A stretch of 64,000 nt of DNA, taken from assembly GCA_021324455.1 (NCBI GenBank), contig JAJPJA010000039.1, forward strand, positions 35,594 through 99,593. Reading direction: 5' to 3'. A program made the position numbers and the translations under genes. A model generated the notes under the pieces. That model saw nothing but the letters and a program-made list of their open reading frames with translations. It ran no database searches and had not been told where the DNA came from. This document shows, piece by piece, positions 19,806 through 49,951 of this stretch. The DNA comes from Pseudomonadota bacterium. GTDB taxonomy: Bacteria > Desulfobacterota > Binatia > Binatales > Binataceae. Every line of letters begins with the position of its first letter. Position 1 is the first letter of the stretch.

Positions 19806-21434
19806 CTACGCCCGGAAGATGAAGCTGACCTCGCCCAGGCGGACTTCGCTGCCGGGCGCCAGCGGCACCGACCCGTGAACCGGCTGGTCATTGAGAAAGG
19901 TGCCGTTGGTCGAGTTGAGGTCGACCAGCTGATAGGCTCCGTTGCGCCGCTGGATCCGGGCATGCGTGCGCGAAACGCTGGCGTGCGGTACCACGAGGTC
20001 GTTTTCGGTGCCGCGGCCCAATGAGATTTCGTCCTTCAAAAGGCTGTACTCCGAGGGCAGCGGCGCCACCGGATTGACCGTGATCAGCTTGGGCTGGCCG
20101 CCCGGCGCCGTCGCGGCCGCCGCCGGCGTCCTTGAAGGCGGCGGGGCGGGGCGCGCTGCCGTGCTCTGCTGCTGGCGGAATATCGGTGCGCGCGGCGCGG
20201 GCTGATTGTACGCCTCGAGGATCGCCTTGACTTCTTCCGCCGGGGGACCGAGACCCGCGCGCGACAATGCCAACAGCGCCAGAATCGCAATCAGCGGAAT
20301 CGCCGCGTTCCACCATTGAAAGGAAAGCTGGCTCAACCCGGTGCCCGATTGGTTCGCGGTTGCGGCTTCGCCCTCTTCGGGAACATTGATGCGCGCGCCG
20401 CTGATGCCGCGCACCTCGTAGCCCGTTTCGGCGTCGGCGGTCTGCCCCTCGTAATCGATCTTCAACTCGACCTTGCGCGAAGTGCCGTCTTCGATCGGCC
20501 GCGGTGTGCGATAGGTCAGCGAATATTGCGTCGCGATCGAATGGCCGATCTCGCGCACCAACTCGGAGAAGCGTCCTTCCTCGGTGACGATATTGTAGGA
20601 ACGGCCGTGAGTCGCGCTGACCAGCAGCGCGTAGTCGGGCGCGATAAACGGCGGCGGCACGACCGCGTACAGAGTCAGGCCGTTTTTCTTGAACATTGCC
20701 GCCACCTGGTCCGCCGTCAGATCGGTGACGTCCTTGTCCTTGTCCGGATGATGGTCCCAGAACGCCTGGTCGTGCTGTGTATGCGCCGAACCGTCGCCCG
20801 CATGATGATCGGGCGCGTCGCTGACCAGGATTACGATGCCCTGCGCTTCGGGACGGAATGGAAAGGTCGAGGCGTAAGCCAGCGCGTCAAGCTGATCTTC
20901 AGGGATATCGCCCCCGCCGCCGGCATGCAGCGAGCCGACCCATTGGGTGAATTCCTGCACGTTGGAAGTCATTTTCTTGTGGTAGGGGCAATTGCAGTCG
21001 GACGCCGCGGAAACGACGTAATCCTCGAAGGTGACCAGTCCCAGCCGATAGTCGCGGTTGTTGCGCGCCAGGTCCTCGGCGAAGCTGATGACGTTCTGCT
21101 TGACCGCGTCGATATAGGGCTGCATCGATTCGGTGACGTCAAGCACGAAGACGATATCCACCGGACGTCCCTGGCCCTGGCCGCGGAAGTCGAGGATCCT
21201 GGCGGGCTTGCCGTCCTCGTAGACCTTTACGTTATCGACGCGCAGATTGCCCACCGGGGCGCCGTTCTGGTCGGTCAGACCGAAATCGATCTGGACGCCG
21301 CCGTCGGTATCGAAATGCTCGAGGCTGGGATTGCCCACCGAAAGTTGCATCGCGGCGCCGGCGGGGCGGGCGGCAAGCGCCGCCAACAACGCCAGCAGGC
21401 CTGCGAGCACAACCGTGCGGCTGCATGAATTCAT
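19806..21434 (-). CDS. signal-peptide / von Willebrand factor A domain / TM helix / Pro-rich linker / FHA domain protein
   Basis: Signal peptide. vWA MIDAS motif VFVLDVTESM. TM segment WWNAAIPLIAILALLALS. The C-terminal FHA shows LGRGTENDLVVPHASVSRTHARIQ ... NSTNGTFLN. Confidence 0.8.
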   Translation of the reverse strand: MNSCSRTVVLAGLLALLAALAARPAGAAMQLSVGNPSLEHFDTDGGVQIDFGLTDQNGAPVGNLRVDNVKVYEDGKPARILDFRGQGQGRPVDIVFVLDVTESMQPYIDAVKQNVISFAEDLARNNRDYRLGLVTFEDYVVSAASDCNCPYHKKMTSNVQEFTQWVGSLHAGGGGDIPEDQLDALAYASTFPFRPEAQGIVILVSDAPDHHAGDGSAHTQHDQAFWDHHPDKDKDVTDLTADQVAAMFKKNGLTLYAVVPPPFIAPDYALLVSATHGRSYNIVTEEGRFSELVREIGHSIATQYSLTYRTPRPIEDGTSRKVELKIDYEGQTADAETGYEVRGISGARINVPEEGEAATANQSGTGLSQLSFQWWNAAIPLIAILALLALSRAGLGPPAEEVKAILEAYNQPAPRAPIFRQQQSTAARPAPPPSRTPAAAATAPGGQPKLITVNPVAPLPSEYSLLKDEISLGRGTENDLVVPHASVSRTHARIQRRNGAYQLVDLNSTNGTFLNDQPVHGSVPLAPGSEVRLGEVSFIFRA

Positions 21435-21589
21435 CGTGCTTTTGATTGTGAAAGCCCAGCTACCACCTAGTCAATATCCTGGCAGCCCGCGGTGGATGCG
21501 CGCGGGCGCGTTTCCCGCCGCCTGCTTGCCTTCGCTCCTGCGGTAAGTTATCCAAGGACCAACCTCAATTTTGCACTTATGGTCGCCGA

Positions 21590-23521
21590 GTGAAACGAAT
21601 ACCTGCACCCTACAGCGTTCTTGTACTGCTTGGTCCGTTATTGACTATCGCCGCCCTGATCGCGGGACCCTTTGGATGCGGCGGCGGGGGCGGGGGCCCC
21701 ACCCCGGTCCCGACCACCGGATCGGTCGAAGTGGGCTTTATCGACAGTCCCAGCCAGCCCTTTCAGTCCATCGCCTTGAACGTCGTTTCGGTGCGGCTCA
21801 ATCCTTCCACCGACGCCAGCATACCCGACACCGATCCAAACTGGGTGGCGGTAACCGCTCCGCCGAGCGCCGGCCCGGGCGAGTTGTCCGTCAACCTGCT
21901 CGATCTGCAGAACAACGGCGTGATTTTCAACACCGGACAGATTGCCGCCCAGACCTATCATCAGATTGAAGTCGTGATCGACGCCAGTATCCCGGGGACG
22001 GTGATTCCCTCGTGTTTGTCCTCGACCACGCCGACGCTGGAAGGATGCATCACGGCCAACGTGTCCTTTACCGGTAGCACCAATCTGCGGTTCAACGACA
22101 TTGCCGGCTTGAGCATCGCGCCCGGAGCCCTGACGCCGCTGTTGATCGATATCAACCCCGGCACCATCGTGTCGCCGGCGTCCTCGGGCGGCAATTATAC
22201 GATGGCGCCGACCATTTCCCTGGCTCCGCCCGCGTCGTTTCTGGTGCCCGTCACGGGTACCGTCAGCGGGCATTCGATCACCAGCGGCACCACGGTAACA
22301 GCGGAATTGTCGGGCACCAACTCGGTAATCGCCACCGCACCGGTTCAGAGCGACAATAGCTACACTATCCAGCTCCCCGCGCCGCCAGTGGGCAGCGCCA
22401 GCTATGACCTGTTCGTTTCCGTCGGCTCAACCATTGCCGTCGCCTCTAACATCGCGGTAACGCGCGGCGGCAGCTCGCCGGTGGTGAATTTCACCGTCGC
22501 CCCGGCCAGCGGCACCGGAACCATCAGCGGTCAGGTAATCGATCAGCGCACCACCAATGGCCTGGTGGGCGCGACGGTTAACCTGCTGCTGCCTGAGACC
22601 AGCGGGGATAACTGCGCCACCAGCCTGGCGGGATGCGTGGTCGTCGCCACCACTACGTCGGATAACACGGCAACCTACACGTTTTCCTCAATACCGCCCA
22701 CCACGCTGCCTTATTATGTGCAGGCCAGCACGACCGGGACCGATACGGCGATTCAGCAGGTAACCGCCTTTGGCACCACCAGTTCCTGCTCGAGCAGCCC
22801 CAATCCCAGCAACTGCAGCTTTAAGCTCAACAATGTGCTGCTGTCCGGACAGATAACGGTCGATCCGATGCCGGCCGCGAGTACCAATATCGTGGTGACA
22901 GTGATGGCGGAGATTACCGGCACCGGCACTTTGGTCGGTTTGACCCAGGTGACAGTCGGACCGTCGGGCAGCGCCAGCTTCTCGATGGAAGTTCCGACCA
23001 CGGCCGGGAACGTGGACCTGATTGCGTCGGCCAACGATAGCTATCAGGGCGTCGGCACGCAGTTCTCGGGGCATCAGTTGGCGGTCGCGTCAAACGTCAA
23101 TCCGGCCGCGACTTCCGGCACTCCCGTAGCGCTGACGGTTACCTGCATGGGGCATGGGACGATTGCCGGCACAGCCCCCAGCTCGGACGCCAACACCCAC
23201 GTCCGGTTGTTTGAGAGCAACGTGCAGTTGATGGACACGACGGTCGGCAGCAGCGTGGTGACGGTGCCGTCGGGAACCGCGACTCCCGCGTTCCCTAATC
23301 AATACTCATTCTGTGTGCCGCCCAACAACACCTACACCATTCAGCGTTTCGAAGTGACCGGCGGTGTTGCCAGCCCGGTGGGTACGCCGACGATGATCGT
23401 GGTCCCGACTCCGATGGCGACGGCGACCGCGACCTGTCCATTATGTACCGCGCCGGCTTCGGCGGGCGGCGGATGTCCGGGCAACTGCAGTGCCACCGCG
23501 GCGAGCCCGTTAAATCCATGA
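21590..23521 (+). CDS. large secreted Thr/Ser/Gly-rich protein (possible lipoprotein) with an N-terminal DUF4382-like domain and CarboxypepD_reg-like repeats
   Basis: GTG start. Signal peptide MKRIPAPYSVLVLLGPLLTIAALIAGPFGCGGGG. DUF4382-like pattern (ELSVNLLDLQNNG ... AAQTYHQIEVVI). CarboxypepD_reg-like segment ISGQVIDQRTTNGLVGATVNLL. 643 aa with very high Thr/Ser content. Confidence 0.7.
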   Translation: MKRIPAPYSVLVLLGPLLTIAALIAGPFGCGGGGGGPTPVPTTGSVEVGFIDSPSQPFQSIALNVVSVRLNPSTDASIPDTDPNWVAVTAPPSAGPGELSVNLLDLQNNGVIFNTGQIAAQTYHQIEVVIDASIPGTVIPSCLSSTTPTLEGCITANVSFTGSTNLRFNDIAGLSIAPGALTPLLIDINPGTIVSPASSGGNYTMAPTISLAPPASFLVPVTGTVSGHSITSGTTVTAELSGTNSVIATAPVQSDNSYTIQLPAPPVGSASYDLFVSVGSTIAVASNIAVTRGGSSPVVNFTVAPASGTGTISGQVIDQRTTNGLVGATVNLLLPETSGDNCATSLAGCVVVATTTSDNTATYTFSSIPPTTLPYYVQASTTGTDTAIQQVTAFGTTSSCSSSPNPSNCSFKLNNVLLSGQITVDPMPAASTNIVVTVMAEITGTGTLVGLTQVTVGPSGSASFSMEVPTTAGNVDLIASANDSYQGVGTQFSGHQLAVASNVNPAATSGTPVALTVTCMGHGTIAGTAPSSDANTHVRLFESNVQLMDTTVGSSVVTVPSGTATPAFPNQYSFCVPPNNTYTIQRFEVTGGVASPVGTPTMIVVPTPMATATATCPLCTAPASAGGGCPGNCSATAASPLNP

Positions 23522-24378: not shown

Positions 24379-25479
24379 ATGAATCGGTTTTTTCGTAGAC
24401 GCTATATTGTGGCGGTCCTGGTGCTGATCGCGCTGGCATTCGCCGCAAAGCCAGCCCTGCGCTACTACCGCTTCATGACCACCCACGTCAGTACCGACGA
24501 CGCCTACGTCGACGGTACCGTGGACCTGATCTCCTCGCGCGTGACCGGAACCGTCAGCCAGGTTTACGTCCAGGACAACTGGATCGTTAAGGCCGGCGAT
24601 CTGCTCGTCAGCCTCGATCCGACCGATTTCGAGGTGCGGGTGGAACGCGCCCGCGCCAACCTCAATCGCGCCCGCAGCATGGTCGACCAGGAATACGCCC
24701 AGATGACCGAGGCCGAAGCCGGACAGCATCTGGCGGAAGCTCAACTGACCCAGGCTGAAACCGACTACAAGCGCGCGCGCACGCTGCGCAAGGTCGGCGT
24801 CGTTTCGCAGGAATTCTACGACCAGTCGGAGACCGCGTACCGCGCTTCCGAAGCCAATCTTGCCCTGGCCAAGCAGGAAGTGGCGCGCTCCCGCGCGGCC
24901 TTGGGCGGCGCCGACAGCGTCGATCACGATCGCTACGACCAGGCGATTGTCAGGCAGGCCGAGGCCGAGCTCAAAACCGCCGAACTGGACCTGGGCTACA
25001 CCAGTATCAAGGCTCCGGTCAGCGGCGTGGTCACGCGCAAGACGGTCCACGTGGGCCATCGCGTCCAGGCGGGCGAACCGCTGATGACCATCGTGCCGCT
25101 GGACAGCCTTTACGTGACGGCCAATTTCAAGGAAACCCAGCTCACCGATGTGCGCGTGGGCCAGAAAGCGGAAATCATCGCCGACATCTACCCCGATTAC
25201 GTCTTCAAGGGGCATGTGGATTCAATCAGCCTCGGCACTGGGGCCGCCTTCTCGCTGCTGCCGCCGGAAAACGCGACCGGCAACTGGGTCAAGGTGGTTC
25301 AGCGGGTGCCGGTCAAAATCGTCTTCGACGAGGCTATCCCGCCCAACCGGCAATTGCGGCTGGGACTTTCGGTCGACGCCTCGATCGATGTCAGCAACAC
25401 GCGCGGACCGCTGATCTCCTCCCTGCTGCAACGGGAGTTCCGCCGGCTTCACAGCAGCCAGAAGACGATTCGACCCTGA
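24379..25479 (+). CDS. HlyD/EmrA-family membrane fusion (periplasmic adaptor) protein
   Basis: N-terminal TM anchor and a biotinyl-lipoyl-like motif (VSTDDAYVDGTVDLISSRVTGTVSQVYVQDNWIVKAGDLL). The long coiled-coil region and C-terminal beta-barrel segment are typical of EmrA. Confidence 0.8.
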   Translation: MNRFFRRRYIVAVLVLIALAFAAKPALRYYRFMTTHVSTDDAYVDGTVDLISSRVTGTVSQVYVQDNWIVKAGDLLVSLDPTDFEVRVERARANLNRARSMVDQEYAQMTEAEAGQHLAEAQLTQAETDYKRARTLRKVGVVSQEFYDQSETAYRASEANLALAKQEVARSRAALGGADSVDHDRYDQAIVRQAEAELKTAELDLGYTSIKAPVSGVVTRKTVHVGHRVQAGEPLMTIVPLDSLYVTANFKETQLTDVRVGQKAEIIADIYPDYVFKGHVDSISLGTGAAFSLLPPENATGNWVKVVQRVPVKIVFDEAIPPNRQLRLGLSVDASIDVSNTRGPLISSLLQREFRRLHSSQKTIRP

Positions 25480-36364: not shown

Positions 36365-37789
36365 TCAACCGCCGGCCATCAGGTCGCTCGCCTGTTTCTC
36401 CACTACGGTGCCATTGAAGAAATCCGGATTCATCCCGGCGAACAGCCTGACCGGGTTGGTGAAAGTCAGGTCGCACAGCTGCTCTTCGGTGAGCACGCCG
36501 TGTTCGACCAGTTCCCAGGATTCCTCCAGCACTTCGGTCATGTCCTTGACGTCGAAATGTCCGATGTCGGAGCCCAGGATCGCGTTGAGCCGGGCTCCGA
36601 ACGGATTGACGCGGCTGTTGAACGCCGCCGCATTCATCGGGTCCTCGGCTTCGCATCCGAAATAGAAGTTGGGCACGAACAGGTCGCGGATATCCTCGGC
36701 GCGATTGATTGCGCAGCGCCAGAAGTCGTCCAGCTGCGGCGGCGGCTCGACATGCTTGCTGATAACCGGGTTGTGCCGCACGGTTTGCCTGATCAATTCG
36801 TCGCCGTAGCGCTCGGCCAGATTGCGAAACAGATTTTCGTCCAGATTGGCCGGATCGACCCGATCCAGCACGTTGATGTTGCGCGTGTTCCAATGCCGGA
36901 TCAGGTCGCTGTACAGGCTGCAGGCCCATCCGGCGCCGCCTTCCAGGAAGGCGAATTTCAGCCTGGGAAAGCGCCGCGTCACGCCGCCCAGAAACAGCGC
37001 CTTGCACAGGGTGTCGCCGGCGGTCGCGAAGTGGCCGATATGGTTGTACACCCAGTTCGACGTCGATGCGCGAAAGCCCAGGCCCTGCGTTGAGTTGTGG
37101 AAGGTGGGAATCAGCCCCAGCTCAATGCATTTGGCCCATACCGGATCGTAATCGTAGTCGCTGTCCAACCCCAGCGGATCGCGCCAGATGCGGTCCGCTT
37201 TTCCCTCGCCCGCCGGAACATGGCGGTTGACCAGCCCGGCCAGCATCACCACCTTCAGCCCCAATGACTTGACGTGCTCGAGCTCCTCGATCGCCTCCTG
37301 CGGCGTATGCACCGGAACTCCGGCAACCGGCGTCAATCGATCGGAATAATCGCGGAACAACTCGGCGGCATATTCGTTGAGCGCGCGCGTGCCGCCGCGG
37401 CGCAGCTCCTCGTCGCGCATGAACGGCACCATCGTCATCACCGAGGTCGGAAACAGCACGCAGAAATCCAGTCCCATCTCGGGCAGCCGCTCATACAGCA
37501 GTTTGGGCAGCATCGCGGTGGCCCGGTCCAGCGTGTTTTTGGTAGGAAACGGCCACCATGCCGGCTGGGCGAGCTTGTTTTTCTGGCGCTGTTCGAAACT
37601 ACTGCCGGCGTTGGGGAGGGTGACCCGCGTGATGCGCTCGTAGCGCGCCGCGGACTGATCTCCCACCACGCGCCGCACGTATTCCATCACGGCGGGTTCG
37701 TACTCGATCCAATGCCCGTCCGAGTCGATCACGGGATGGCTCAAACGGGCATGAATAGCGGCAGACTTGCTGGTTGCGGTGGCGGCCAT
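36365..37789 (-). CDS. amidohydrolase-2-like protein, long form (474 aa), paralog B
   Basis: Collinear with paralog A along its whole length (MAATATSKSAAIHARLSHPVIDSDGHWIEYEP ... GSDIGHFD). Confidence 0.75.
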   Translation of the reverse strand: MAATATSKSAAIHARLSHPVIDSDGHWIEYEPAVMEYVRRVVGDQSAARYERITRVTLPNAGSSFEQRQKNKLAQPAWWPFPTKNTLDRATAMLPKLLYERLPEMGLDFCVLFPTSVMTMVPFMRDEELRRGGTRALNEYAAELFRDYSDRLTPVAGVPVHTPQEAIEELEHVKSLGLKVVMLAGLVNRHVPAGEGKADRIWRDPLGLDSDYDYDPVWAKCIELGLIPTFHNSTQGLGFRASTSNWVYNHIGHFATAGDTLCKALFLGGVTRRFPRLKFAFLEGGAGWACSLYSDLIRHWNTRNINVLDRVDPANLDENLFRNLAERYGDELIRQTVRHNPVISKHVEPPPQLDDFWRCAINRAEDIRDLFVPNFYFGCEAEDPMNAAAFNSRVNPFGARLNAILGSDIGHFDVKDMTEVLEESWELVEHGVLTEEQLCDLTFTNPVRLFAGMNPDFFNGTVVEKQASDLMAGG

Positions 37790-37836
37790 TTTGCTCTCTC
37801 TCCTCTCAGCCCGGCCTTCTACAATCTGTAAGGATT

Positions 37837-40253
37837 TTATTGCGTGCCGGCGTAAACCCGGGCCGCGCCCTGCGCCTGCCGGCGCATCGCGGCCGCGCCC
37901 TTGTCATTCTTCAATACGAACACAACCTTATCCACAACGCCGTTAAAACGGAAAGGACACCGGTAGCTTTCGTCAACCGGCGTTCCGGTGTCGATTCCGA
38001 CGTCGAATGTATCATGATCGGAAAAGACGAACGGCACGGTGCGATCGATCGCGCCTTCGCCGGTCTTGTGGCCGTTGATGAAGACCGCGCCGCGTCCTGT
38101 GTTGTCGCCGGTTCTGGTGAACTCGAACCGCAGCGTCGATTTGCCCGGGCGCAGCCGCTCGCGCGAGGCGACCCTGTAGCGCTCATCGCCCAGGAAATTG
38201 TAAACGAAGGTGGGACGACCGCCGCGGACGAAAAACGCGTAGCCGCCAAAGCGCCCGCCGTCGGTCACGATCATCCCGTCGCCGCCGCCGGGCGGGACCT
38301 CCACCTCGGCGGTGATGCTGTAGGAGCGGTTCTTTACGTCGGGTGCGAGGATTTCCGGCACCCGGAAAGTCCCGGCGGTGTAGGTGTACTCGGCGCGCGG
38401 CGCCGGCAGCCACGGCTTGGCCGGCGCGATGCGGCCCAGCCGATCGTCGAGCGGCAGGACGTTGTTGCGCTGCGCCTCCTTCAGCCACAGCGCCTCCAGT
38501 TCCTTCACCTTGTCCGGATATTGCGCCGACAGGTCATGGATCTCGGCGAAGTCGTCATCGACGTGATACAGCTCCCAATGGTCGTTATCGAACGGCACCG
38601 AACCGGCGGAATCCCACGGCGGACGTCCGTGAAAAACGACCGCTTTCCAGCCGTCGCGCCAGATGCCGCGATTGCCCACCATTTCATAATACTGCATATG
38701 GCGCGCGGCGGGCGCCGACGGATCGCCTAAAGTTCGGGCAAAGCTGATACCGTCCAGCGGCCGCTGCGGCACACCGCCGATTACGGAGGGCGGTTTGATG
38801 CCGGCGACCTCCAGAATCGTCGGCGCAATATCGGTAACGTGGCAGAACTGATGGCGGATCGCCCCCGCATCCTTTATCAATCTGGGATAGTAAACGATCA
38901 ACGGATCGCGCACGCCGCCGTAGTGCACGGTCTGCTTGTAATACTTCAGCGGCGTGTTGCTGGCTGGGCCCATCCCACCGGATAATGGTTGTAGGTCAGG
39001 GGAGAGCCGAATTCGCCGATCCTTGCCACGTCGCGCTCAAGCGGCTCGGGCACGCGGTTGAAGATGCGGAATTCGTTGCTGGTGCCGATCAGACCCCCTT
39101 CCGCGCTGGCGCCGTTGTCCGACATCACGATTATCAGCGTGTTGTCCATCTGGCCCATCGCGGAGAGCGCCGCCACGATGCGCCCGAACTGGTAGTCGGC
39201 ATGCTCCAGGTAGCCGGCGTACACCTCCATCTCGCGCGCGAACAGCCGCCGCTCGGACGGCGTCAGCGCCGCCCACGGCTTGACGCCCGGCGCCAGCGGG
39301 GCAAGCTCGGTGTTGGCCGGTACGATGCCTATTTCCTTCTGGCGGGTGAGTATCTCCTTGCGGATCTGATCCCAGCCTTTGTCGAAACGTCCCTTGTAAT
39401 GATCGATGAACTCGCGGGGCGCCTGATGCGGCGCGTGGCAGGCGGCGGGGGCGAAATAGAGCAGGAAGGGCCGCGCGGGTTCGATCGCTTTAAGCCGCCG
39501 CATCTGCTCGATCGCCTGGTCCGCGAGGATCGCGGTCAGATGATCCTGCGCCCGATTCCATTGCGCCGGCCAATCGCGCAGTATCGCGCTGGTATTTTCG
39601 AACAGCTCCGGATTCCACTGGCTGGCCTCGCCGCCCTGAAAGCCGAAGAAATAGTCGAAACCCCAGATGCCGGTGGGCCAGTACTTGAACGGTCCCGCCG
39701 CCGAAGTGAACTCGAGCGGCGTGTTGTGCCATTTGCCGATCGCGTAGGTCGCGTAGCCGTTCAGCTTCAGGATCGTGGGCAGCGTGCCGGCGTCGTCGGG
39801 CAGCAGGCCGTCGTAGCCCGGATAGCCGGTGGCGGCCTCGATGATGGTGCCGAAGCCGACCGCGTGATGGTTGCGGCCGGTGAGCAGCGCCGCGCGCGTG
39901 GGCGAGCATAGCGCCGTGGTGGTGAAATTGTTGTAACGCAAGCCCCGCGCCGCAATCCGATCGATATTGGGAGTGTGAATCGGACCGCCATAGCTGCCCA
40001 GATTGGCGAAGCCCACGTCATCGAGCAGAAAAATCACGACATTGGGGGCGCCCGGGCGGGCTGTGGGCAGCGCCGGCCACGCGGGTTGCGACTGCTTGTA
40101 GGTGAAGCCGATAACGCCGTTAAATTTGCCGTCGCTGTAGGTTCTGACGGCAACAATCGCCGCTGCCGCAACCGGCACCATCAGCCCGGCCATCGCCAGC
40201 CACAATACCAGGTGCAGTCGCGGATTGGGCCGGAAAGAATCGGGAGCTTTCAT
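37837..40253 (-). pseudogene. arylsulfatase (large AtsA-type), interrupted by a frameshift
   Basis: The N-terminal ORF at 38946-40253 has a signal peptide and the sulfatase signature CSPTRAALLTGRNHH. The C-terminal ORF at 37837-38973 continues the sulfatase fold in another frame. The two ORFs overlap by 28 nt. The expected junction VGWAxxSNTPLKYYKQ is broken as VGWAQPATRR* versus MGPASNTPLKYYKQ, which is consistent with a 1-nt loss near 38958-38963. Confidence 0.7.
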
Positions 40254-40388
40254 CGATTACCTCCCATTATTACGCGGCTATTGCTGCTTATAGGTGTCCT
40301 CCCCTCTATCACGGCGCGCTTGAGAATTGCGAACCGCGGCGGGCGGATTGAGCCCGCCGCCAGCGCCGCGCATCCGGCGGCGCGCGCT

Positions 40389-42059
40389 TCAGGTCGGACG
40401 CAGAACGCGGCCGGGCAGAACTCCACGCGGCTGACCGTGATCGTACAGCACCTGGCCGTTGACCACGGTGTAATGCACGCCGGTCGCCGCCACCGTCAGG
40501 CGCATCCCGCCGCCCGGCAGGTCGAAGGCGGTTCGCGGACCTTTCTCGCCCACCGTGTCGTAGTCGAAAATAGCGATATCCGCGGCCATGCCCGGCGCCA
40601 GCCGTCCGCGGTCGCCGAGCCCGAAAAAGTCCGCCGGCTCCGATGTCATGCGCTTGACCGCGCGCTCCAGCGAGAACAGCTTTTCCTCGCGCACCCAATG
40701 CCCCACCATGTAGGTGCAGTAGGCGGCGCCGCAGAACATATCGACGTGCGCGCCGCCGTCGCCCAAACCGACCAACGTGCGATCGTCGGCCAGCAGCCCG
40801 CTCAGGTAGCGCTCGAAATCCTCGAAGATGCAGAACCTGGTCTGCAGCTTGTCCGCGATGGCGAGGTCCAAAAACGCGTCCACCGGCGCCTTGCCCGTTT
40901 CGCCCGCCACCTGGAGAATGCCTTTGCCCTCGAAATGGCGCAGCGCGGGATCGCTGACCTCGGCCACCGACATCGCCTTCCAGTTGCCGGAAAAGAAAAC
41001 TTCGGGTTTCTCGAGCCCCTGGGCAAAGGCCGCGCGGAACGCCGGATCGGACAGGATTTCGATCTGCTTCTCCAGCGGCTGATGGAATACCTGTTTCCAT
41101 TCGGCGCGCGGCGCGAACACGAACGGGTCGCGCAGCGCGAACAGGATCTTGTTGCCTTTGCTGACGATCTGGGGAATGCCTCCGCGCCGGATCAGCGGTT
41201 CGGCTTTCTTCAGCGTCGCCTCATGCGCCGTCAGATCGGTGATGCGCGGCAACAGCGCCGTCCAGGTCACCGGGCGTCCGCTATGCTCCAGCAGCAGGTC
41301 GACCAGTTCGTATTCCTGATCCGACAGCAGCCCCAAATCCTGCGTCAGCGCGATTTCGACCACGCCCCTGCCGCTGTGCTTCAGCACGTTAGCGTAGGCG
41401 GCGAGTTCGTCGCGGTCGGCCAGGCGGCAGGCGAGCGGGCGGCCCTTGTAGCCCAGATGCTGGCGGAAGACGGTGGTGGAAAAACCCAATGCGCCGGCGC
41501 CGATCGCTTCGCGCAGCAGCCCCGCGATGCGCTCGCGCTCATCGGGACGCGCCGCGCGCTGGCTCGATTCCTCGCCCAGCACGTAATGGCGCAGCGGCGT
41601 GAGCGGCACCAGAAAGCCGACGTTGATGCCCAGGCCGCGGTTTTGCGCCGCCTGCATGTACTGCGGAAAGCTTTCCCAATCCCAGGTGATACCGCGGGTC
41701 AGGACGTCAAACGGGATGCCTTCGACCGTGACCAGATCGCGCGTGACCATCTCATGCGCCTGCGCGCGGCAGGGCGCGATCCCCACGCCGCAGTTGCCGA
41801 TCACGACGCTGGTCACGCCATGCTCCGATGAGCAGGTGAGCAGGGGATCCCAGCAGATTTGCGCGTCGTAATGCGTATGCGGGTCGATAAAGCCGGGCGC
41901 CGCGATCAGGCCGGCGGCGTCGATCTCCTCGCGCGCTTTGCCCCCGAGGTTGCCGAGCGCGGCAATCCTGCCGCCGGCGACGCCGATATCGCCCTTAAAA
42001 CCGGGCGCTCCGGTGCCGTCAACGATCGTGGCTTTCCTGATGATCAGGTCGTAGTCCAT
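40389..42059 (-). CDS. N-acyl-D-amino-acid deacylase (D-aminoacylase) family amidohydrolase
   Basis: MDYDLIIRKATIVDGTGAPGFKGDIGVAGGRIAALG ... FIDPHTHYD is the typical D-aminoacylase N-terminus. 556 aa from the ATG at 42059; the upstream track extension was rejected. Confidence 0.8.
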   Translation of the reverse strand: MDYDLIIRKATIVDGTGAPGFKGDIGVAGGRIAALGNLGGKAREEIDAAGLIAAPGFIDPHTHYDAQICWDPLLTCSSEHGVTSVVIGNCGVGIAPCRAQAHEMVTRDLVTVEGIPFDVLTRGITWDWESFPQYMQAAQNRGLGINVGFLVPLTPLRHYVLGEESSQRAARPDERERIAGLLREAIGAGALGFSTTVFRQHLGYKGRPLACRLADRDELAAYANVLKHSGRGVVEIALTQDLGLLSDQEYELVDLLLEHSGRPVTWTALLPRITDLTAHEATLKKAEPLIRRGGIPQIVSKGNKILFALRDPFVFAPRAEWKQVFHQPLEKQIEILSDPAFRAAFAQGLEKPEVFFSGNWKAMSVAEVSDPALRHFEGKGILQVAGETGKAPVDAFLDLAIADKLQTRFCIFEDFERYLSGLLADDRTLVGLGDGGAHVDMFCGAAYCTYMVGHWVREEKLFSLERAVKRMTSEPADFFGLGDRGRLAPGMAADIAIFDYDTVGEKGPRTAFDLPGGGMRLTVAATGVHYTVVNGQVLYDHGQPRGVLPGRVLRPT

Positions 42060-42088
42060 GGTCCTTCCTTTTCGCCCGCCCTTTCCGC

Positions 42089-43198
42089 TTACGGCCGGTA
42101 AAAGGCCAGCGCGCTTTCCGCCATCACGATGCGGCGCATATCGGGTCGCAGCCGCTGTGCAATCTGTTGCGGCGCGCCGGGAAAGAAGCCGTCGGGATGG
42201 GGATAATCGGTGGCCCACAGGATATGCTCGGGTCCCAGGAAATCCGCCGCGAACTGCACCGACGCCTCCACCGGCTCGAATGACACCCAGCATTGACGGC
42301 GGAAGTAGTCGGAGGGCTTCATCCTGATTTCCGGATAGAACAGATGGCTGTCGGAGAAATGGCGGTCCATCCGATCCAGCCACGCCGGCATCCATCCGCC
42401 GCCCGCCTCCAGAAAGCCGAAGCGCAGTTTGGGAAAGCGCTCGCACACGCCGCCCCAGATTACGCACAGCGACGCCAGCATCATTTCCATCGTATGCGAG
42501 ACGATATGCTTGGCGCCGCGATTGGCGAAGCGGTCGGCGCCGATCGCCGGATTGCCGCCCAGTCCCTCATGGATTCCGATCGCGAAATCAAGCTCCTGCG
42601 CCGCGGCCCACAACGGGTCGTAGGCGCGGTCATCCAACTGCCGGTTGTTGTAGCGGTTGGGACGCACGAATCCCGATCGCATCCCCAACTCCTTGCGCGC
42701 AAAGCGCATCTCCTCGATCGCGTATTCCACCGACTGCATCGGCAGCATCGCCACCCCGAACAGCCGGTCCGGGTAGGGACTGCAATAGTCGGCCAGCCAT
42801 CGGTTGTAGGCGCGAAAGCAGGCAGCGGCGAATTTGGGATCTTCCACCGCGCCCATCCACAGGCCCATCGTGGGGTAGAGGAACACCGCGTCGATACCGT
42901 CGAGGTCGAGATCGGCGATGCGCGCGTGCGGATCGAACCCGCCCTTGCGCCCCTCGGCGTACTTCATGTCCTTGACCGTGTCGGCCCCCCCGCGCACCGC
43001 GTCGATCGCGCCCGCGGAGCCGATTCCGTCAAAGCCGGGAAAGGCGCGGCCGATAAACCACATCATCTCCTTGCCGCGCTCATCGATGAAGTATCTCGGC
43101 GCCTGATCGCGGTAAGCGGGATCGATATATCGCTGCCACAGATCGACCGGTTCGAGCACGTGGCCGTCGGAATCGATGACGTTGTAAGTGCGGCCCAT
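42089..43198 (-). CDS. amidohydrolase-2 family protein
   Basis: N-terminal IDSDGHVLEP and C-terminal WATDYPHPD, 369 aa. Paralogous to the gene at 30189-31304. Confidence 0.8.
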   Translation of the reverse strand: MGRTYNVIDSDGHVLEPVDLWQRYIDPAYRDQAPRYFIDERGKEMMWFIGRAFPGFDGIGSAGAIDAVRGGADTVKDMKYAEGRKGGFDPHARIADLDLDGIDAVFLYPTMGLWMGAVEDPKFAAACFRAYNRWLADYCSPYPDRLFGVAMLPMQSVEYAIEEMRFARKELGMRSGFVRPNRYNNRQLDDRAYDPLWAAAQELDFAIGIHEGLGGNPAIGADRFANRGAKHIVSHTMEMMLASLCVIWGGVCERFPKLRFGFLEAGGGWMPAWLDRMDRHFSDSHLFYPEIRMKPSDYFRRQCWVSFEPVEASVQFAADFLGPEHILWATDYPHPDGFFPGAPQQIAQRLRPDMRRIVMAESALAFYRP

Positions 43199-43638
43199 CG
43201 CAGCGCAACCTCCGCATAAACCCAGGCTTATCCGCGGCGATCGCCGCGGCTTCTCCGTAGCAAGCGTGTAACATGGGATCGCGGGCTTATCAATCGCGGG
43301 CGCGGGAACTCCGCAGCCGCTCGGTGCGGCGGGATTTCCGGACTATCCCGCGCGGGCGGCAGGCGGAAATCAACCGCGCAGGGTCAGCGCAGCCGCCAAT
43401 GCGGCCGAATGGTCTCATTTGACCAGATCCGCGAATAAAAATGAAGCGTTCGGGCCCTGCCCGGGTTTGAATCCTTGCGCGCCGCGCCGCGGGCCGGTTA
43501 TCGTTTGGGCCGTATGGATATCGTGCTGACTGTGCCGCGGCGTTCCCGCCTCGCCGCCCATTAGCGAGTCCATTACGTTTCACTCACCGCTTAGAGCGGG
43601 AAAACTTCAGGTCCGCACCATTAATCCGGATTGGAGCC

Positions 43639-48710: not shown

Positions 48711-49951
48711 GAGCCGGGAGGCCACGCTCGGTTCCGCCGCCCGCATACCTGCTTTTCACATGGGTGTTGGTGGCTGCCGCAGCCGGCGCCGCGCCTCGCA
48801 GCGGCGCCGCCAACGTGCTGCGGCGGGCGTGGATCGAACATCGCGGGGCTATCTTCACGGTCCATATCCGCCTGAGCGGACGCCCGCGATGGACGCTCAG
48901 CCAGCAGGCGAGCCGATTGCAAATCGATCTGCCCGATACGCTTCCGAACTGGCCGCCCGATCAGTTTCTGCATGCGCCGGTCGGGTCTCTGGGTTCGGTC
49001 CGCATCGTGGGCGCGGGCGGCTCGATTCGGATCGAGATCGACGCGGCCGGCAGCGACTACGTGGTGGGCCGCCAGCATGACGACCTGATCATAGGGCTGG
49101 CGCCGCGCGGGGCTGGACCGCGAATTGCCGCCGTATTTTCCAGTCGGCGCAACGCCGCGCCGTCCCCTCGAATCGAACCGCGACAAACCGCTCGCGCCGA
49201 TCACGCCCCGGCTCCTTTGCTGGCGCCGGCCGTGGACGCCGATGGTTATGTCCGGGGACGTTCCGTGGTGGTCGTCGATCCCGGCCATGGCGGGCATGAC
49301 CCCGGCACCCGATCGGCCGGCGGGGTGCTGGAGAAAGATTTGGCCCTGCAGATCGGACGCCGCCTGGCCGCGGCGCTGGCCAATCGCGGGGTGAAGGCGT
49401 TGATGACCCGCGAGCGCGACGTCTATCTGACCCTGGCGCAGCGCACGGCAATCGCGAATCAGACCGGAGCGGACCTGTTCGTTTCGGTCCATCTGAACTG
49501 GAGCCCCAATCCGGGCACCACCGGAATGGAGGTTTACTACCTGAATAACACCACCGATCGCGCTACAATCAGGCTGGCGCGGATGGAAAACGCGGCCGAG
49601 CGCGGCGCAGCCCCGCTCGATCCCAACCTGAACTACATCTTGAGCGATCTCCAGCAACAGTATAAAGCCACCGAATCAGCCCTGCTGGCGCAAGCGATGG
49701 AACAGCAGACGGTGAGCGCGTTGGCGGGCGGCTTTGGCAATGACATCCGCGGCCTTGGAGCCAAACGCGGTCCCTTCTATGTTCTGGTCGGACCGCGGAG
49801 CCCGGCGGTGCTGGTCGAATGCGGTTTTCTGTCCAACCGGGCGGAAACGCAGCGCCTGTCCGATCCCGCCTATCAGCAGGCGATGGCGGACGCGCTGGCC
49901 GACAGCGTGGTGCATTACCTCAATCAGGACGTGAGCGCGGGGACATTGTGA
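48707..49951 (+). CDS. amiC: N-acetylmuramoyl-L-alanine amidase (Amidase_3, AmiC-type with N-terminal AMIN-like domain)
   Basis: The ATG overlaps the mutS TGA (ATGA). Catalytic region VVVDPGHGGHDPG ... DLFVSVHLNW ... GMEVYYLNN. Confidence 0.85.
   Translation: MRAGRPRSVPPPAYLLFTWVLVAAAAGAAPRSGAANVLRRAWIEHRGAIFTVHIRLSGRPRWTLSQQASRLQIDLPDTLPNWPPDQFLHAPVGSLGSVRIVGAGGSIRIEIDAAGSDYVVGRQHDDLIIGLAPRGAGPRIAAVFSSRRNAAPSPRIEPRQTARADHAPAPLLAPAVDADGYVRGRSVVVVDPGHGGHDPGTRSAGGVLEKDLALQIGRRLAAALANRGVKALMTRERDVYLTLAQRTAIANQTGADLFVSVHLNWSPNPGTTGMEVYYLNNTTDRATIRLARMENAAERGAAPLDPNLNYILSDLQQQYKATESALLAQAMEQQTVSALAGGFGNDIRGLGAKRGPFYVLVGPRSPAVLVECGFLSNRAETQRLSDPAYQQAMADALADSVVHYLNQDVSAGTL

Follow-up and report, generated by a model that had tools for sequence, protein, structure and literature searches.

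A transmembrane vWA-FHA protein of Binatia as a candidate co-receptor of a Hanks-type kinase and PP2C phosphatase system

A gene in a 64,000-nucleotide stretch of contig JAJPJA010000039.1 (the window), from an uncultured soil bacterium of the Binataceae, encodes a 542-residue protein in which an extracytoplasmic vWA domain is joined to a cytoplasmic FHA domain by one transmembrane (TM) helix. We propose, as the most probable reading, that this vWA-TM-FHA protein is a phosphothreonine (pThr)-dependent co-receptor or scaffold of a Hanks-type kinase/PP2C system that is conserved across the class Binatia. The proposal draws on two strongly conserved binding sites and on a six-gene operon in which the orthologs outside the Binataceae lie.

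The gene occupies 19806..21434 on the minus strand (542 codons plus stop, with an ATG start in the open reading frame (ORF) call) and is a real gene: the GC content at its codon positions (0.66/0.46/0.80) is typical of real genes in this 63% GC window, and a search of 5.8 billion proteins returned 774 homologs.

Domain architecture and topology

Both domains score above the gathering thresholds of Pfam. The FHA domain (PF00498) is matched at residues 471-534 with 72.6 bits (cut-off 20.7; E=3.7e-20), and the match spans profile positions 2-67 of 67. Residues 89-216 match four VWA-type models, all of which reach their gathering scores: VWA_4 (PF25106; 43.0 bits, cut-off 27), Integrin_beta (PF00362; 39.1, cut-off 24.8), VWA (PF00092; 30.8, cut-off 23.8) and VWA_2 (27.1, cut-off 27). 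A Kyte-Doolittle scan found exactly two hydrophobic segments, residues 1-29 and 372-398. The first resembles a signal peptide and terminates in AGA/AM. The 20 residues preceding the second contain no Lys or Arg, three such residues follow it, and the 67-residue linker behind the TM helix holds 15 Pro and 14 Ala. An AlphaFold2 model computed from a 131-sequence alignment (mean pLDDT 81) features an N-terminal helix (residues 3-21), beta strands (30-84), an alpha/beta VWA domain (92-301) and further strands (303-340), followed by a low-confidence stalk, a helix (375-392), a disordered linker and a very confident FHA sandwich (449-541). The modelled domains adopt the expected folds, an 11-strand beta-sandwich for FHA and a Rossmann-like alpha/beta fold for VWA.

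Independent evidence on topology comes from fused relatives in a sister clade (clade B, described below), in which a second FHA protein precedes the vWA-TM-FHA protein. Here one TM helix lies between the N-terminal FHA domain and the VWA domain and another between the VWA domain and the C-terminal FHA domain, and the segment equivalent to the signal peptide has become an internal TM helix. With one TM helix on each side of the VWA domain, both FHA domains must lie on the side of the membrane that contains ATP and kinases, and the VWA domain on the opposite side. Hydropathy, model and fusions together predict a type-I inner-membrane protein with a periplasmic VWA and a cytoplasmic FHA domain.

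The two predicted binding sites are both intact. The VWA domain contains a motif of the metal-ion-dependent adhesion site (MIDAS) type, DVTES at residues 99-103, in which the middle Ser is replaced by Thr (D99-V-T101-E-S103); together with D176-x-P178-E179 (D176-I-P-E179) and D206 this forms a complete predicted MIDAS. The FHA domain contains the pThr-binding signature G473-R474, S488-x-x-H491 and N510-G511. In a MAFFT alignment of 120 clade-A (Binataceae) and 78 clade-B sequences, D99, T101, S103, D176, P178 and E179 are invariant in 198/198 homologs and D206 is Glu in a single one; G473, R474, S488, H491 and G511 are likewise invariant in 198/198, and a single clade-B sequence has Ser instead of N510. 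Conservation in the same alignment is poor for the signal peptide, the stalk and the cytoplasmic linker, and linker identity to the protein from the window is 0.38 and 0.12 in the two clades. The (near-)invariance of the metal-site and pThr-site residues indicates strong purifying selection on both sites in both clades.

Beside the metal site, Binataceae proteins carry two clade-specific insertions, residues 141-156 and 207-236 (about 20727-21014 of the window). Residues 141-156 form a CxC loop (C147, C149) that aligns with a disulfide-bonded loop of integrin beta-8. A conserved His-rich loop of the Binataceae, HHAGDGSAHTQHDQAFWDHHPDKD, is shorter in clade B, where it reads H-S-R-G-D-G-S. The CxC and His-rich loops may be extra metal- or ligand-specificity elements.

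These results agree with a previous sequence-only reading of the window, which had proposed a signal peptide, a vWA domain with DxTxS, one TM helix, a Pro/Ala linker and an FHA domain: Pfam and hydropathy recover every point of that layout, including the two domains whose absence from Pfam would have spoken against it. Its placement of the domains on opposite sides of the membrane is borne out by hydropathy, by the Lys/Arg asymmetry and, independently, by the fusion proteins, and its claim of an intact MIDAS by the motif and its invariance across the 198 homologs.

An integrin-beta-like headpiece

To which solved structures is the protein closest? When the family profile was compared with all sequences in the Protein Data Bank (PDB), the FHA part retrieved Rv1747 (the best match), EmbR, FhaA, GarA/OdhI and ArnA. 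The VWA part retrieved solely integrin beta-8, -1, -3, -6 and -7 among the 60 matches listed, with E-values down to 9e-12. The 50 best Foldseek matches are all integrin beta; ArnA and ArnB also turn up in sequence and structure searches. In the pairwise alignment with integrin beta-8, PVDIVFVLDVTESM pairs with PVDLYYLVDVSASM, RDYRLGLVTF with RDFRLGFGSY, GGDIPEDQLDAL with NIDTPEGGFDAM, and ILVSDAPDH with LVMTDQTSH, so that the metal ligands fall on the DVSAS, D-T-P-E and TD motifs of that integrin. By sequence, the VWA domain is assigned to the integrin beta-I type, with Glu instead of Thr as the second-loop ligand.

The metazoan integrin beta headpiece is thus the closest solved relative by both sequence and Foldseek. 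The two share a DxSxS-type motif, a D-x-P-E motif and an Asp after beta-4, and in both the VWA domain sits between beta strands, ahead of a stalk, one TM helix and a short cytoplasmic docking part. The differences are substantial: identity is only ~14-19%, the ADMIDAS Asp-Asp pair of integrins is not conserved in the sequence, and an FHA domain takes the place of NPxY motifs in the cytoplasm. The PSI, EGF and tail domains of integrins are lacking by Pfam, and no alpha subunit is evident. The absence of these domains, the low identity and the missing ADMIDAS pair lead us to conclude that the protein is not an integrin. Assignment as a metazoan integrin beta subunit was accordingly rejected: the likeness is confined to the headpiece, Pfam finds no PSI, hybrid, four EGF or beta-tail domains, and the chain has 542 residues with an FHA tail.

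In the model, the strands that flank the VWA domain recall the integrin hybrid domain and the beta-barrel of Sec23/24 and ArnB. It is conceivable, if unlikely, that the periplasmic part represents a genuine prokaryotic equivalent of the integrin beta headpiece, with a beta-I domain set in a hybrid-like beta-sandwich and ligand binding at the MIDAS relayed through the sandwich and the TM helix to FHA-pThr engagement. If true, integrin-style outside-in (or inside-out) signalling would be wired into a bacterial Ser/Thr kinase network. In other phyla, the same headpiece is joined to tails with zinc ribbons or several TM helices.

Two clades and a shared ectodomain module

The best 120 of the 774 homologs are all full-length, with the same Pfam architecture and 65-100% identity, and belong to 'Candidatus Binataceae' wherever the source names the organism. 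Among 1.8 billion cluster representatives scanned exhaustively with HMMER, very few other clusters showed the identical full-length layout, including P0121 (60% identity), P0125 (43%) and P0122 (44%, 775 aa). A search seeded with P0125 uncovered a second clade, recorded as 'Candidatus Binatia' or, in earlier entries, as 'Deltaproteobacteria'. From these matches the family appears confined to Binatia and splits into clade A (Binataceae) and clade B (non-Binataceae, ~43% identity). Family members are filed in databases as 'FHA domain-containing protein', 'hypothetical protein' or 'Mg-chelatase subunit ChlD'.

The ectodomain is more widespread than the fusion: 49 of the 150 best representative clusters contain it (at least 200 of 317 positions aligned). 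Five combine it with a TM helix and FHA (P0121, P0122, P0125, P0148 and P0152), a tally in which P0125 and P0148 were assigned beyond the automatic count (TM helix under the hydropathy threshold and length of 903 aa, respectively); P0148 reads FHA-TM-ectodomain-TM-FHA. About eight clusters combine the ectodomain and a TM helix with double zinc ribbons. In P0151, P0154, P0156, P0159, P0165, P0169 and P0172, two cytoplasmic CPxCG...FCxxCG zinc ribbons replace the FHA domain, while the order of signal peptide, beta-region, integrin-beta-like VWA and TM helix is retained. One to two clusters carry multi-TM regions, about 22 are giant secreted multi-domain proteins, and others have different short tails or lack a TM helix altogether. 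FHA and zinc ribbon thus look like interchangeable cytoplasmic modules.

A six-gene kinase and phosphatase operon in clade B

In three annotated clade-B loci (L008, L009 and L010), the ortholog closes a run of six closely spaced genes that share one direction (Table 1). A scan of one genome per GTDB species for the operon with its Pkinase-PP2C fusion gave 27 loci with full-length orthologs, and all six genes are present, in order, in 25/25 loci on contigs that reach far enough. The 4TM-FHA protein encoded by the fifth gene is fused to the N terminus of vWA-TM-FHA in 27 of 80 clade-B proteins (748-801 aa), Rosetta-stone fusions which indicate that the two proteins act together.

The kinases of 791/792 aa possess the motifs VAIK, YRDxKPxN and DFG, span the membrane once at about residues 315-339, carry an extracytoplasmic domain of ~450 aa and look like active receptor kinases. 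The kinase domain fused to PP2C lacks VAIK, YRDxKPxN and DFG and is therefore probably a pseudokinase. The first gene encodes a cytoplasmic VWA protein with an unusual tail: all 112 members of its family carry 4-6 TQx[LIVM] motifs within the final 90 residues, and the first ~340 residues are free of them (examples among P0381-P0500 are KATQAL, KKTQSL, AKTQLL and RKTQQL). The sequence pT-x-x-(I/L/V) is a typical FHA ligand. The TQx[LIVM] tail is a candidate multi-phosphothreonine docking site for several FHA proteins of the operon.

Hanks-type kinase (Pkinase) and PP2C genes are absent by Pfam from all called genes of the window, as the sequence-only reading had stated, and tblastn of the window with five kinases and two PP2C proteins gave only FHA-level matches to the vWA-TM-FHA protein itself. 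The link to Ser/Thr phosphorylation put forward in that reading, which we still infer, gains support from comparative genomics: the sister-clade operon, which also encodes two proteins with kinase domains, one PP2C and two additional FHA proteins, and the fusions. The similar vWA-TM-FHA proteins with conserved neighbours that it suggested looking for do exist, in two clades, each with its own fixed context.

A looser cluster of a kinase, a PP2C, a protein similar to the 429-aa operon VWA (26-34% identity) and a ZnR-FHA-like protein, without vWA-TM-FHA, was observed in Anaerolineae/Chloroflexota (L038-L045, L049), suggesting that the core module of four genes predates Binatia and extends beyond them. 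Several metagenome-assembled genomes (MAGs) with the operon at 57-76% identity are titled 'uncultured Enterobacteriaceae bacterium' (L027, L028, L031 and L033) or 'uncultured Nitrospira sp.' (L029); these five public records are almost certainly mislabelled.

Probable relocation of the gene in Binataceae

Binataceae also possess the operon, at a different locus. Its orthologs there were missed by the two peptide patterns of the Pkinase-PP2C scan and found instead by a search with the operon VWA (429 aa), the best-conserved operon protein, which returned full-length orthologs of 58-61% identity named 'Candidatus Binataceae' or 'Candidatus Binatus sp.'. Two such loci of Candidatus Binatus sp. 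(L091, on a 961-kb contig, and L092) encode VWA, ZnR-FHA, an extra Pkinase-FHA protein, ZnR-pseudokinase-PP2C, Pkinase (792 aa) and 4TM-FHA, and contain no vWA-TM-FHA gene. Its slot is filled by a 253-aa lipoprotein-like protein that has no Pfam or PADLOC match. Conversely, none of the operon genes lies in the window or in the six Binataceae loci that hold the vWA-TM-FHA gene.

The protein from the window shares 42-43% identity over more than 94% of its length, the same architecture and the same invariant sites with the operon-terminal vWA-TM-FHA proteins. Identities between Binataceae and a clade-B operon (L008) are 58% for VWA, 49% for ZnR-FHA, 44% for PK-PP2C, 41% for PK and 51% for 4TM-FHA. 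Because its divergence falls within this range (41-58%), the gene in the window is most likely a relocated ortholog of the sixth gene of the operon, moved in an ancestor of the Binataceae.

Genomic neighbourhood

The coordinates of the gene's parts, its neighbours and the operon genes are collected in Table 1.

Table 1. Features of the vWA-TM-FHA gene, its neighbours in the window and the related operons (window coordinates unless a locus is given).
Feature	Coordinates	Strand	Evidence or remarks
Predicted signal peptide or signal anchor, residues 1-28	21351..21434	-	Ends AGA/AM; hydropathy; model helix 3-21; poorly conserved
Predicted periplasmic headpiece, residues 29-345	20400..21350	-	Strands 30-84, integrin-beta-like VWA 92-301, strands 303-340
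Predicted metal ligands of the headpiece VWA	within 20400..21350	-	D99/T101/S103/D176/E179/D206
Predicted single TM helix, residues 372-396	20247..20321	-	Hydropathy; model helix 375-392; W375 and N376 invariant
Predicted cytoplasmic Pro/Ala-rich linker, residues 397-460	20055..20246	-	Composition; predicted disordered, pLDDT <50 at 412-444
Predicted cytoplasmic FHA domain, residues 461-542	19809..20054	-	pThr-binding G473, R474, S488, H491 and N510 intact
Weak sigma-70-like promoter match, TTGACT-18-CACAAT	21445..21474	-	Promoter scan; just 5' of the ATG
643-aa Thr/Ser-rich protein	21590-23521	+	Divergent to vWA-TM-FHA; 25% Ser+Thr, 1.4% Lys+Arg, 13 Cys; DUF4382 match
Gly/Ser/Thr-rich protein, ~239-264 aa	23518-24237	+	Lipoprotein-like N terminus; no Pfam match
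EmrA/EmrK-type periplasmic adaptor	24379-25479	+	TIGR00998 E=1.4e-92 but below cut-off
APH-family phosphotransferase, 382 aa	25999-27147	+	Pfam APH E=8.8e-26; adjoins the EmrA-like adaptor
Operon gene 1, cytoplasmic VWA, 429 aa	L008:2903-4192		TQxL-repeat tail
Operon gene 2, ZnR-FHA, about 217 aa			N-terminal zinc ribbon
Operon gene 3, Pkinase + PP2C fusion, 568 aa			Probable pseudokinase-PP2C
Operon gene 4, Pkinase, 791 aa			Putative receptor Ser/Thr kinase
Operon gene 5, 4TM-FHA, 285 aa			Four to five Gly-rich TM helices
Operon gene 6, vWA-TM-FHA			
Binataceae operon VWA	L091:10001-11305		
Binataceae 253-aa lipoprotein-like protein	L091:19260-20021; L092:19458-20219		In the vWA-TM-FHA slot; signal sequence ending FSGC

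The promoter scan gave one site upstream of the gene against 0.6 expected by chance; chance is not exceeded, and the match is only suggestive. The same scan found no terminator after the gene, and Rfam and tRNA scans of the whole window returned nothing.

The arrangement around the gene is constant among Binataceae: a divergently transcribed ~640-730 aa Thr/Ser-rich protein, a ~230 aa protein, an EmrA-like adaptor and an APH-family protein lie upstream in 6/6 loci, with two Thr/Ser-rich proteins instead of one in L006/L007. Downstream in the six loci are a TPP enzyme and other housekeeping genes (CMD, amidohydrolase, DUF309), with the TPP enzyme 79-83% identical between loci. Since these housekeeping genes are equally syntenic, adjacency at such depth is uninformative on function. 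The 643-aa and ~239-aa proteins both evolve fast (29-33%) compared with their neighbours (58-83% identical); the Thr/Ser-rich proteins are 29-33% identical between loci, against 64-68% for the vWA-TM-FHA protein. The window contains no gene for an inner-membrane pump beside the adaptor; in L002 and L004, a MacB-type ABC pump with its own adaptor lies ~3-4 kb beyond it. By tblastn, the window's neighbour genes are absent beside all 27 sister-clade loci and have no match among the genes downstream of the sister-clade copies, where two proteins of L009 (687 and 418 aa) gave no Pfam match. The sequence-only reading had pointed to the divergent Thr/Ser-rich proteins and the orphan adaptor. They are placed as it described, but a functional relation is not supported, as the synteny is limited to Binataceae. 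The APH-family (protein-kinase-fold) protein, four genes away and unmentioned in that reading's remark on kinases, is probably a small-molecule kinase; its gene adjoins that of the EmrA-like adaptor in all the Binataceae loci inspected.

Elsewhere in the window, a run of hydrolase genes occupies 36365-42467 on the minus strand (Amidohydro_2, a split sulfatase-like pair and Amidohydro_3). In the pair, SGSH_C (37837-38973) overlaps Sulfatase (38946-40253) by 28 nt, and the split domains could reflect a frameshift or two real genes. In two segments of ~1.1 kb each (42468-43638 and 48711-49818), the simple gene caller accepted no ORF, and no tRNA or Rfam match was found.

Proposed mechanism and alternative explanations

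We envisage the following mechanism. The Binataceae gene would have left the operon yet still serve the operon's system. The receptor kinase would phosphorylate threonines, most plausibly those of TQx[LIVM] motifs in the tail of the operon VWA and/or in its own juxtamembrane region. The FHA domain of vWA-TM-FHA and the other FHA proteins of the system (three or four in all) would dock on the phosphorylated sites, and the docked membrane FHA protein would tether the cytoplasmic complex to the membrane. A precedent is found in Sulfolobus, where the flexible C terminus of the VWA protein ArnB is phosphorylated by ArnC and ArnD and bound by the FHA domain of ArnA (PMC5007285), and it is on this model that docking to the operon VWA tail is proposed. 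On the periplasmic side, the MIDAS would bind an acidic residue of an envelope or extracellular ligand, which could be the ectodomain of the kinase itself (~450 aa), the 253-aa lipoprotein, or a component of the envelope or the surroundings. Such binding could report ligand occupancy into the system, or position and anchor the complex. PP2C would reset the system.

Several points weigh against this proposal. A shared assembly holding both the vWA-TM-FHA gene and the operon was not identified among Binataceae-labelled MAGs, as judged from cluster-member accessions. The kinase, the PP2C and the other operon members are all missing from the 64-kb window; with no operon member near the gene, the link in Binataceae rests on orthology, not adjacency. 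Its function may also have shifted after relocation, because the 253-aa gene fills the vacated slot and the CxC and His-rich insertions are clade-specific. Finally, TQxL docking is inferred at the level of motifs.

The conserved neighbourhood could point to a different role, in which the protein was recruited in Binataceae as the FHA-regulated inner-membrane part of an envelope assembly or export device together with the EmrA-like adaptor and the Thr/Ser-rich proteins. FHA domains have parallel positions in YscD of the type III secretion system (T3SS), Fha/TagH of the type VI system (T6SS), EssC of the type VII system (T7SS) and the ABC exporter Rv1747, the last being the best PDB sequence match of our FHA domain, which also passes the Yop-YscD_cpl model (PF16697; 49.4 bits against a cut-off of 33.2). 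The adaptor without an adjacent pump in the window and the gene order kept in all six Binataceae loci fit such a device. The equal synteny of the flanking housekeeping genes deprives that order of its weight, the neighbours are found beside none of the 27 sister-clade genes, and no ATPase or transporter is linked to the gene. In addition, the contrast between Thr/Ser-rich proteins (29-33%) and ectodomain (79-83% conserved) argues against a tightly co-evolving pair. We therefore regard a role in export or envelope assembly as unlikely.

Less likely still is a function, as sensor or as output arm, in a module of the threat-sensing or anti-phage type. TerY-P triads (VWA, PP2C, STK-ZnR) are tied to defence and TerY-P-like modules act as stand-alone defence (PMC11090510); in the actinobacterial Esr pathway, a vWA protein, a kinase/phosphatase pair and an FHA output protein sense epibionts (PMC13622651); and the Binataceae operon VWA gives a weak vWA-TerF-like Pfam match. 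The PADLOC library, however, matches neither the vWA-TM-FHA protein, the operon VWA nor the FHA proteins, and the kinases match generic kinase models only. The operon is also conserved vertically throughout the class, at a fixed and syntenic site of the chromosome, and has no nuclease or other effector gene linked to it. Similarly improbable, in our view, is an FHA domain that works as a phosphorylation-independent structural or oligomerisation module, in what would be a periplasmic adhesin or metal-binding protein anchored in the membrane. Structural FHA-fold domains do occur in bacteria, among them the YscD cytoplasmic family that our protein also matches, and the His-rich and CxC loops of clade A beside the MIDAS could bind extra metal. 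Such a module would not explain why the pThr-contact residues (GR, SxxH, NG) are (near-)invariant in 198 sequences, nor why the sister clade has the gene inside a kinase/phosphatase operon or in fusion with one of its members. The pThr-dependent co-receptor or scaffold is the explanation we favour.

Relation to known families and systems

Beyond its FHA and VWA domains, the protein was assigned to none of the more specific families tested. It scores 68.8 bits against a cut-off of 125 for FhaB/FipA (NF049868), through the FHA region only; 50 bits against 120.25 for T6SS TagH/Fha (TIGR03354), and the window has no T6SS genes; and 58.9 bits against 81.25 for the acidobacterial-type VWFA family TIGR03436, with residues 47-137 aligned, which makes it related only. 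It fails the NCBIfam model of OdhI. For T3SS YscD, the cytoplasmic-domain model alone matches (PF16697, 49.4 bits); the periplasmic part is a VWA domain and no T3SS genes are nearby. PADLOC gave no TerY-P-type match, and membership of a TerY-P triad or defence module was not assigned. Kaur et al. (2020) mention kinase + PP2C + VWA linkages briefly and use 'Ternary system' for vWA-MoxR-VMAP; we dropped this label for the vWA-FHA-PP2C-kinase set, as the term denotes something else.

Four further known systems invite comparison. In Pseudomonas aeruginosa, the kinase PpkA has an extracellular VWA sensor domain and phosphorylates Fha1, an FHA protein; the PP2C PppA counteracts it (PMC3224232). This H1-T6SS pathway resembles the system described here in combining an extracytoplasmic VWA domain, one TM helix, a Hanks kinase, a PP2C and an FHA reader (PMC3224232; PMC1262709), and by analogy it shows that a VWA domain outside coupled to pThr/FHA signalling inside is an established principle. 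The difference is that the VWA domain of PpkA is fused to the kinase, the writer, whereas ours is fused to the FHA reader and the Binatia kinase has a different ectodomain. ArnA (ZnF-FHA) and ArnB (VWA) of Sulfolobus acidocaldarius resemble the start of the Binatia operon, a TQxL-tailed cytoplasmic VWA followed by ZnR-FHA. They are soluble cytoplasmic regulators of archaellum genes, unlike the membrane protein with its integrin-beta-type extracytoplasmic VWA, which is an extra FHA component without an Arn counterpart. The Deinococcus radiodurans operon DRA0331-DRA0334, which encodes a vWA protein, a transmembrane Ser/Thr kinase, an FHA protein and a PP2C (bioRxiv 10.64898/2026.01.23.701218), and the TerY-P triads share with the Binatia operon a clustered set of VWA, Ser/Thr kinase, FHA and PP2C. 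Their VWA is a stand-alone cytoplasmic protein, and no membrane vWA-TM-FHA subunit is described for those systems. Mycobacterial FhaB/FipA (Rv0019c), FhaA and Rv1747 provide the best FHA sequence matches and, like our protein, are membrane-tethered or membrane-acting FHA proteins that dock on Hanks-kinase pThr; unlike it, they have no extracytoplasmic VWA domain.

Integrin-beta-like proteins have been noted in cyanobacteria (PMC2651865). In the literature searches made for this purpose, neither a membrane vWA-TM-FHA subunit nor the six-gene Binatia operon nor a TQxL-repeat tail was found described. What is known, then, are the domains and the signalling logic; the new details are the vWA-TM-FHA fusion, the integrin-beta-like ectodomain and the operon.

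Implications

For annotation, many thousands of Binatia entries named 'FHA domain-containing protein' or 'Mg-chelatase subunit ChlD' could receive a more informative description, and an integrin-beta-like headpiece is documented as an exchangeable bacterial sensor module that can carry an FHA, a zinc-ribbon or a multi-TM tail. The usual picture of bacterial Hanks-kinase systems comprises a kinase, a phosphatase and FHA readers that are soluble, and it often leaves unclear how events outside the cytoplasm are coupled to them. Here, the pThr reader is itself predicted to span the membrane and to carry an integrin-beta-like, metal-dependent periplasmic domain. The compact, strictly conserved six-gene set with its candidate TQxL docking platform makes such outside-to-inside coupling testable in vitro, even though the organisms are uncultured.

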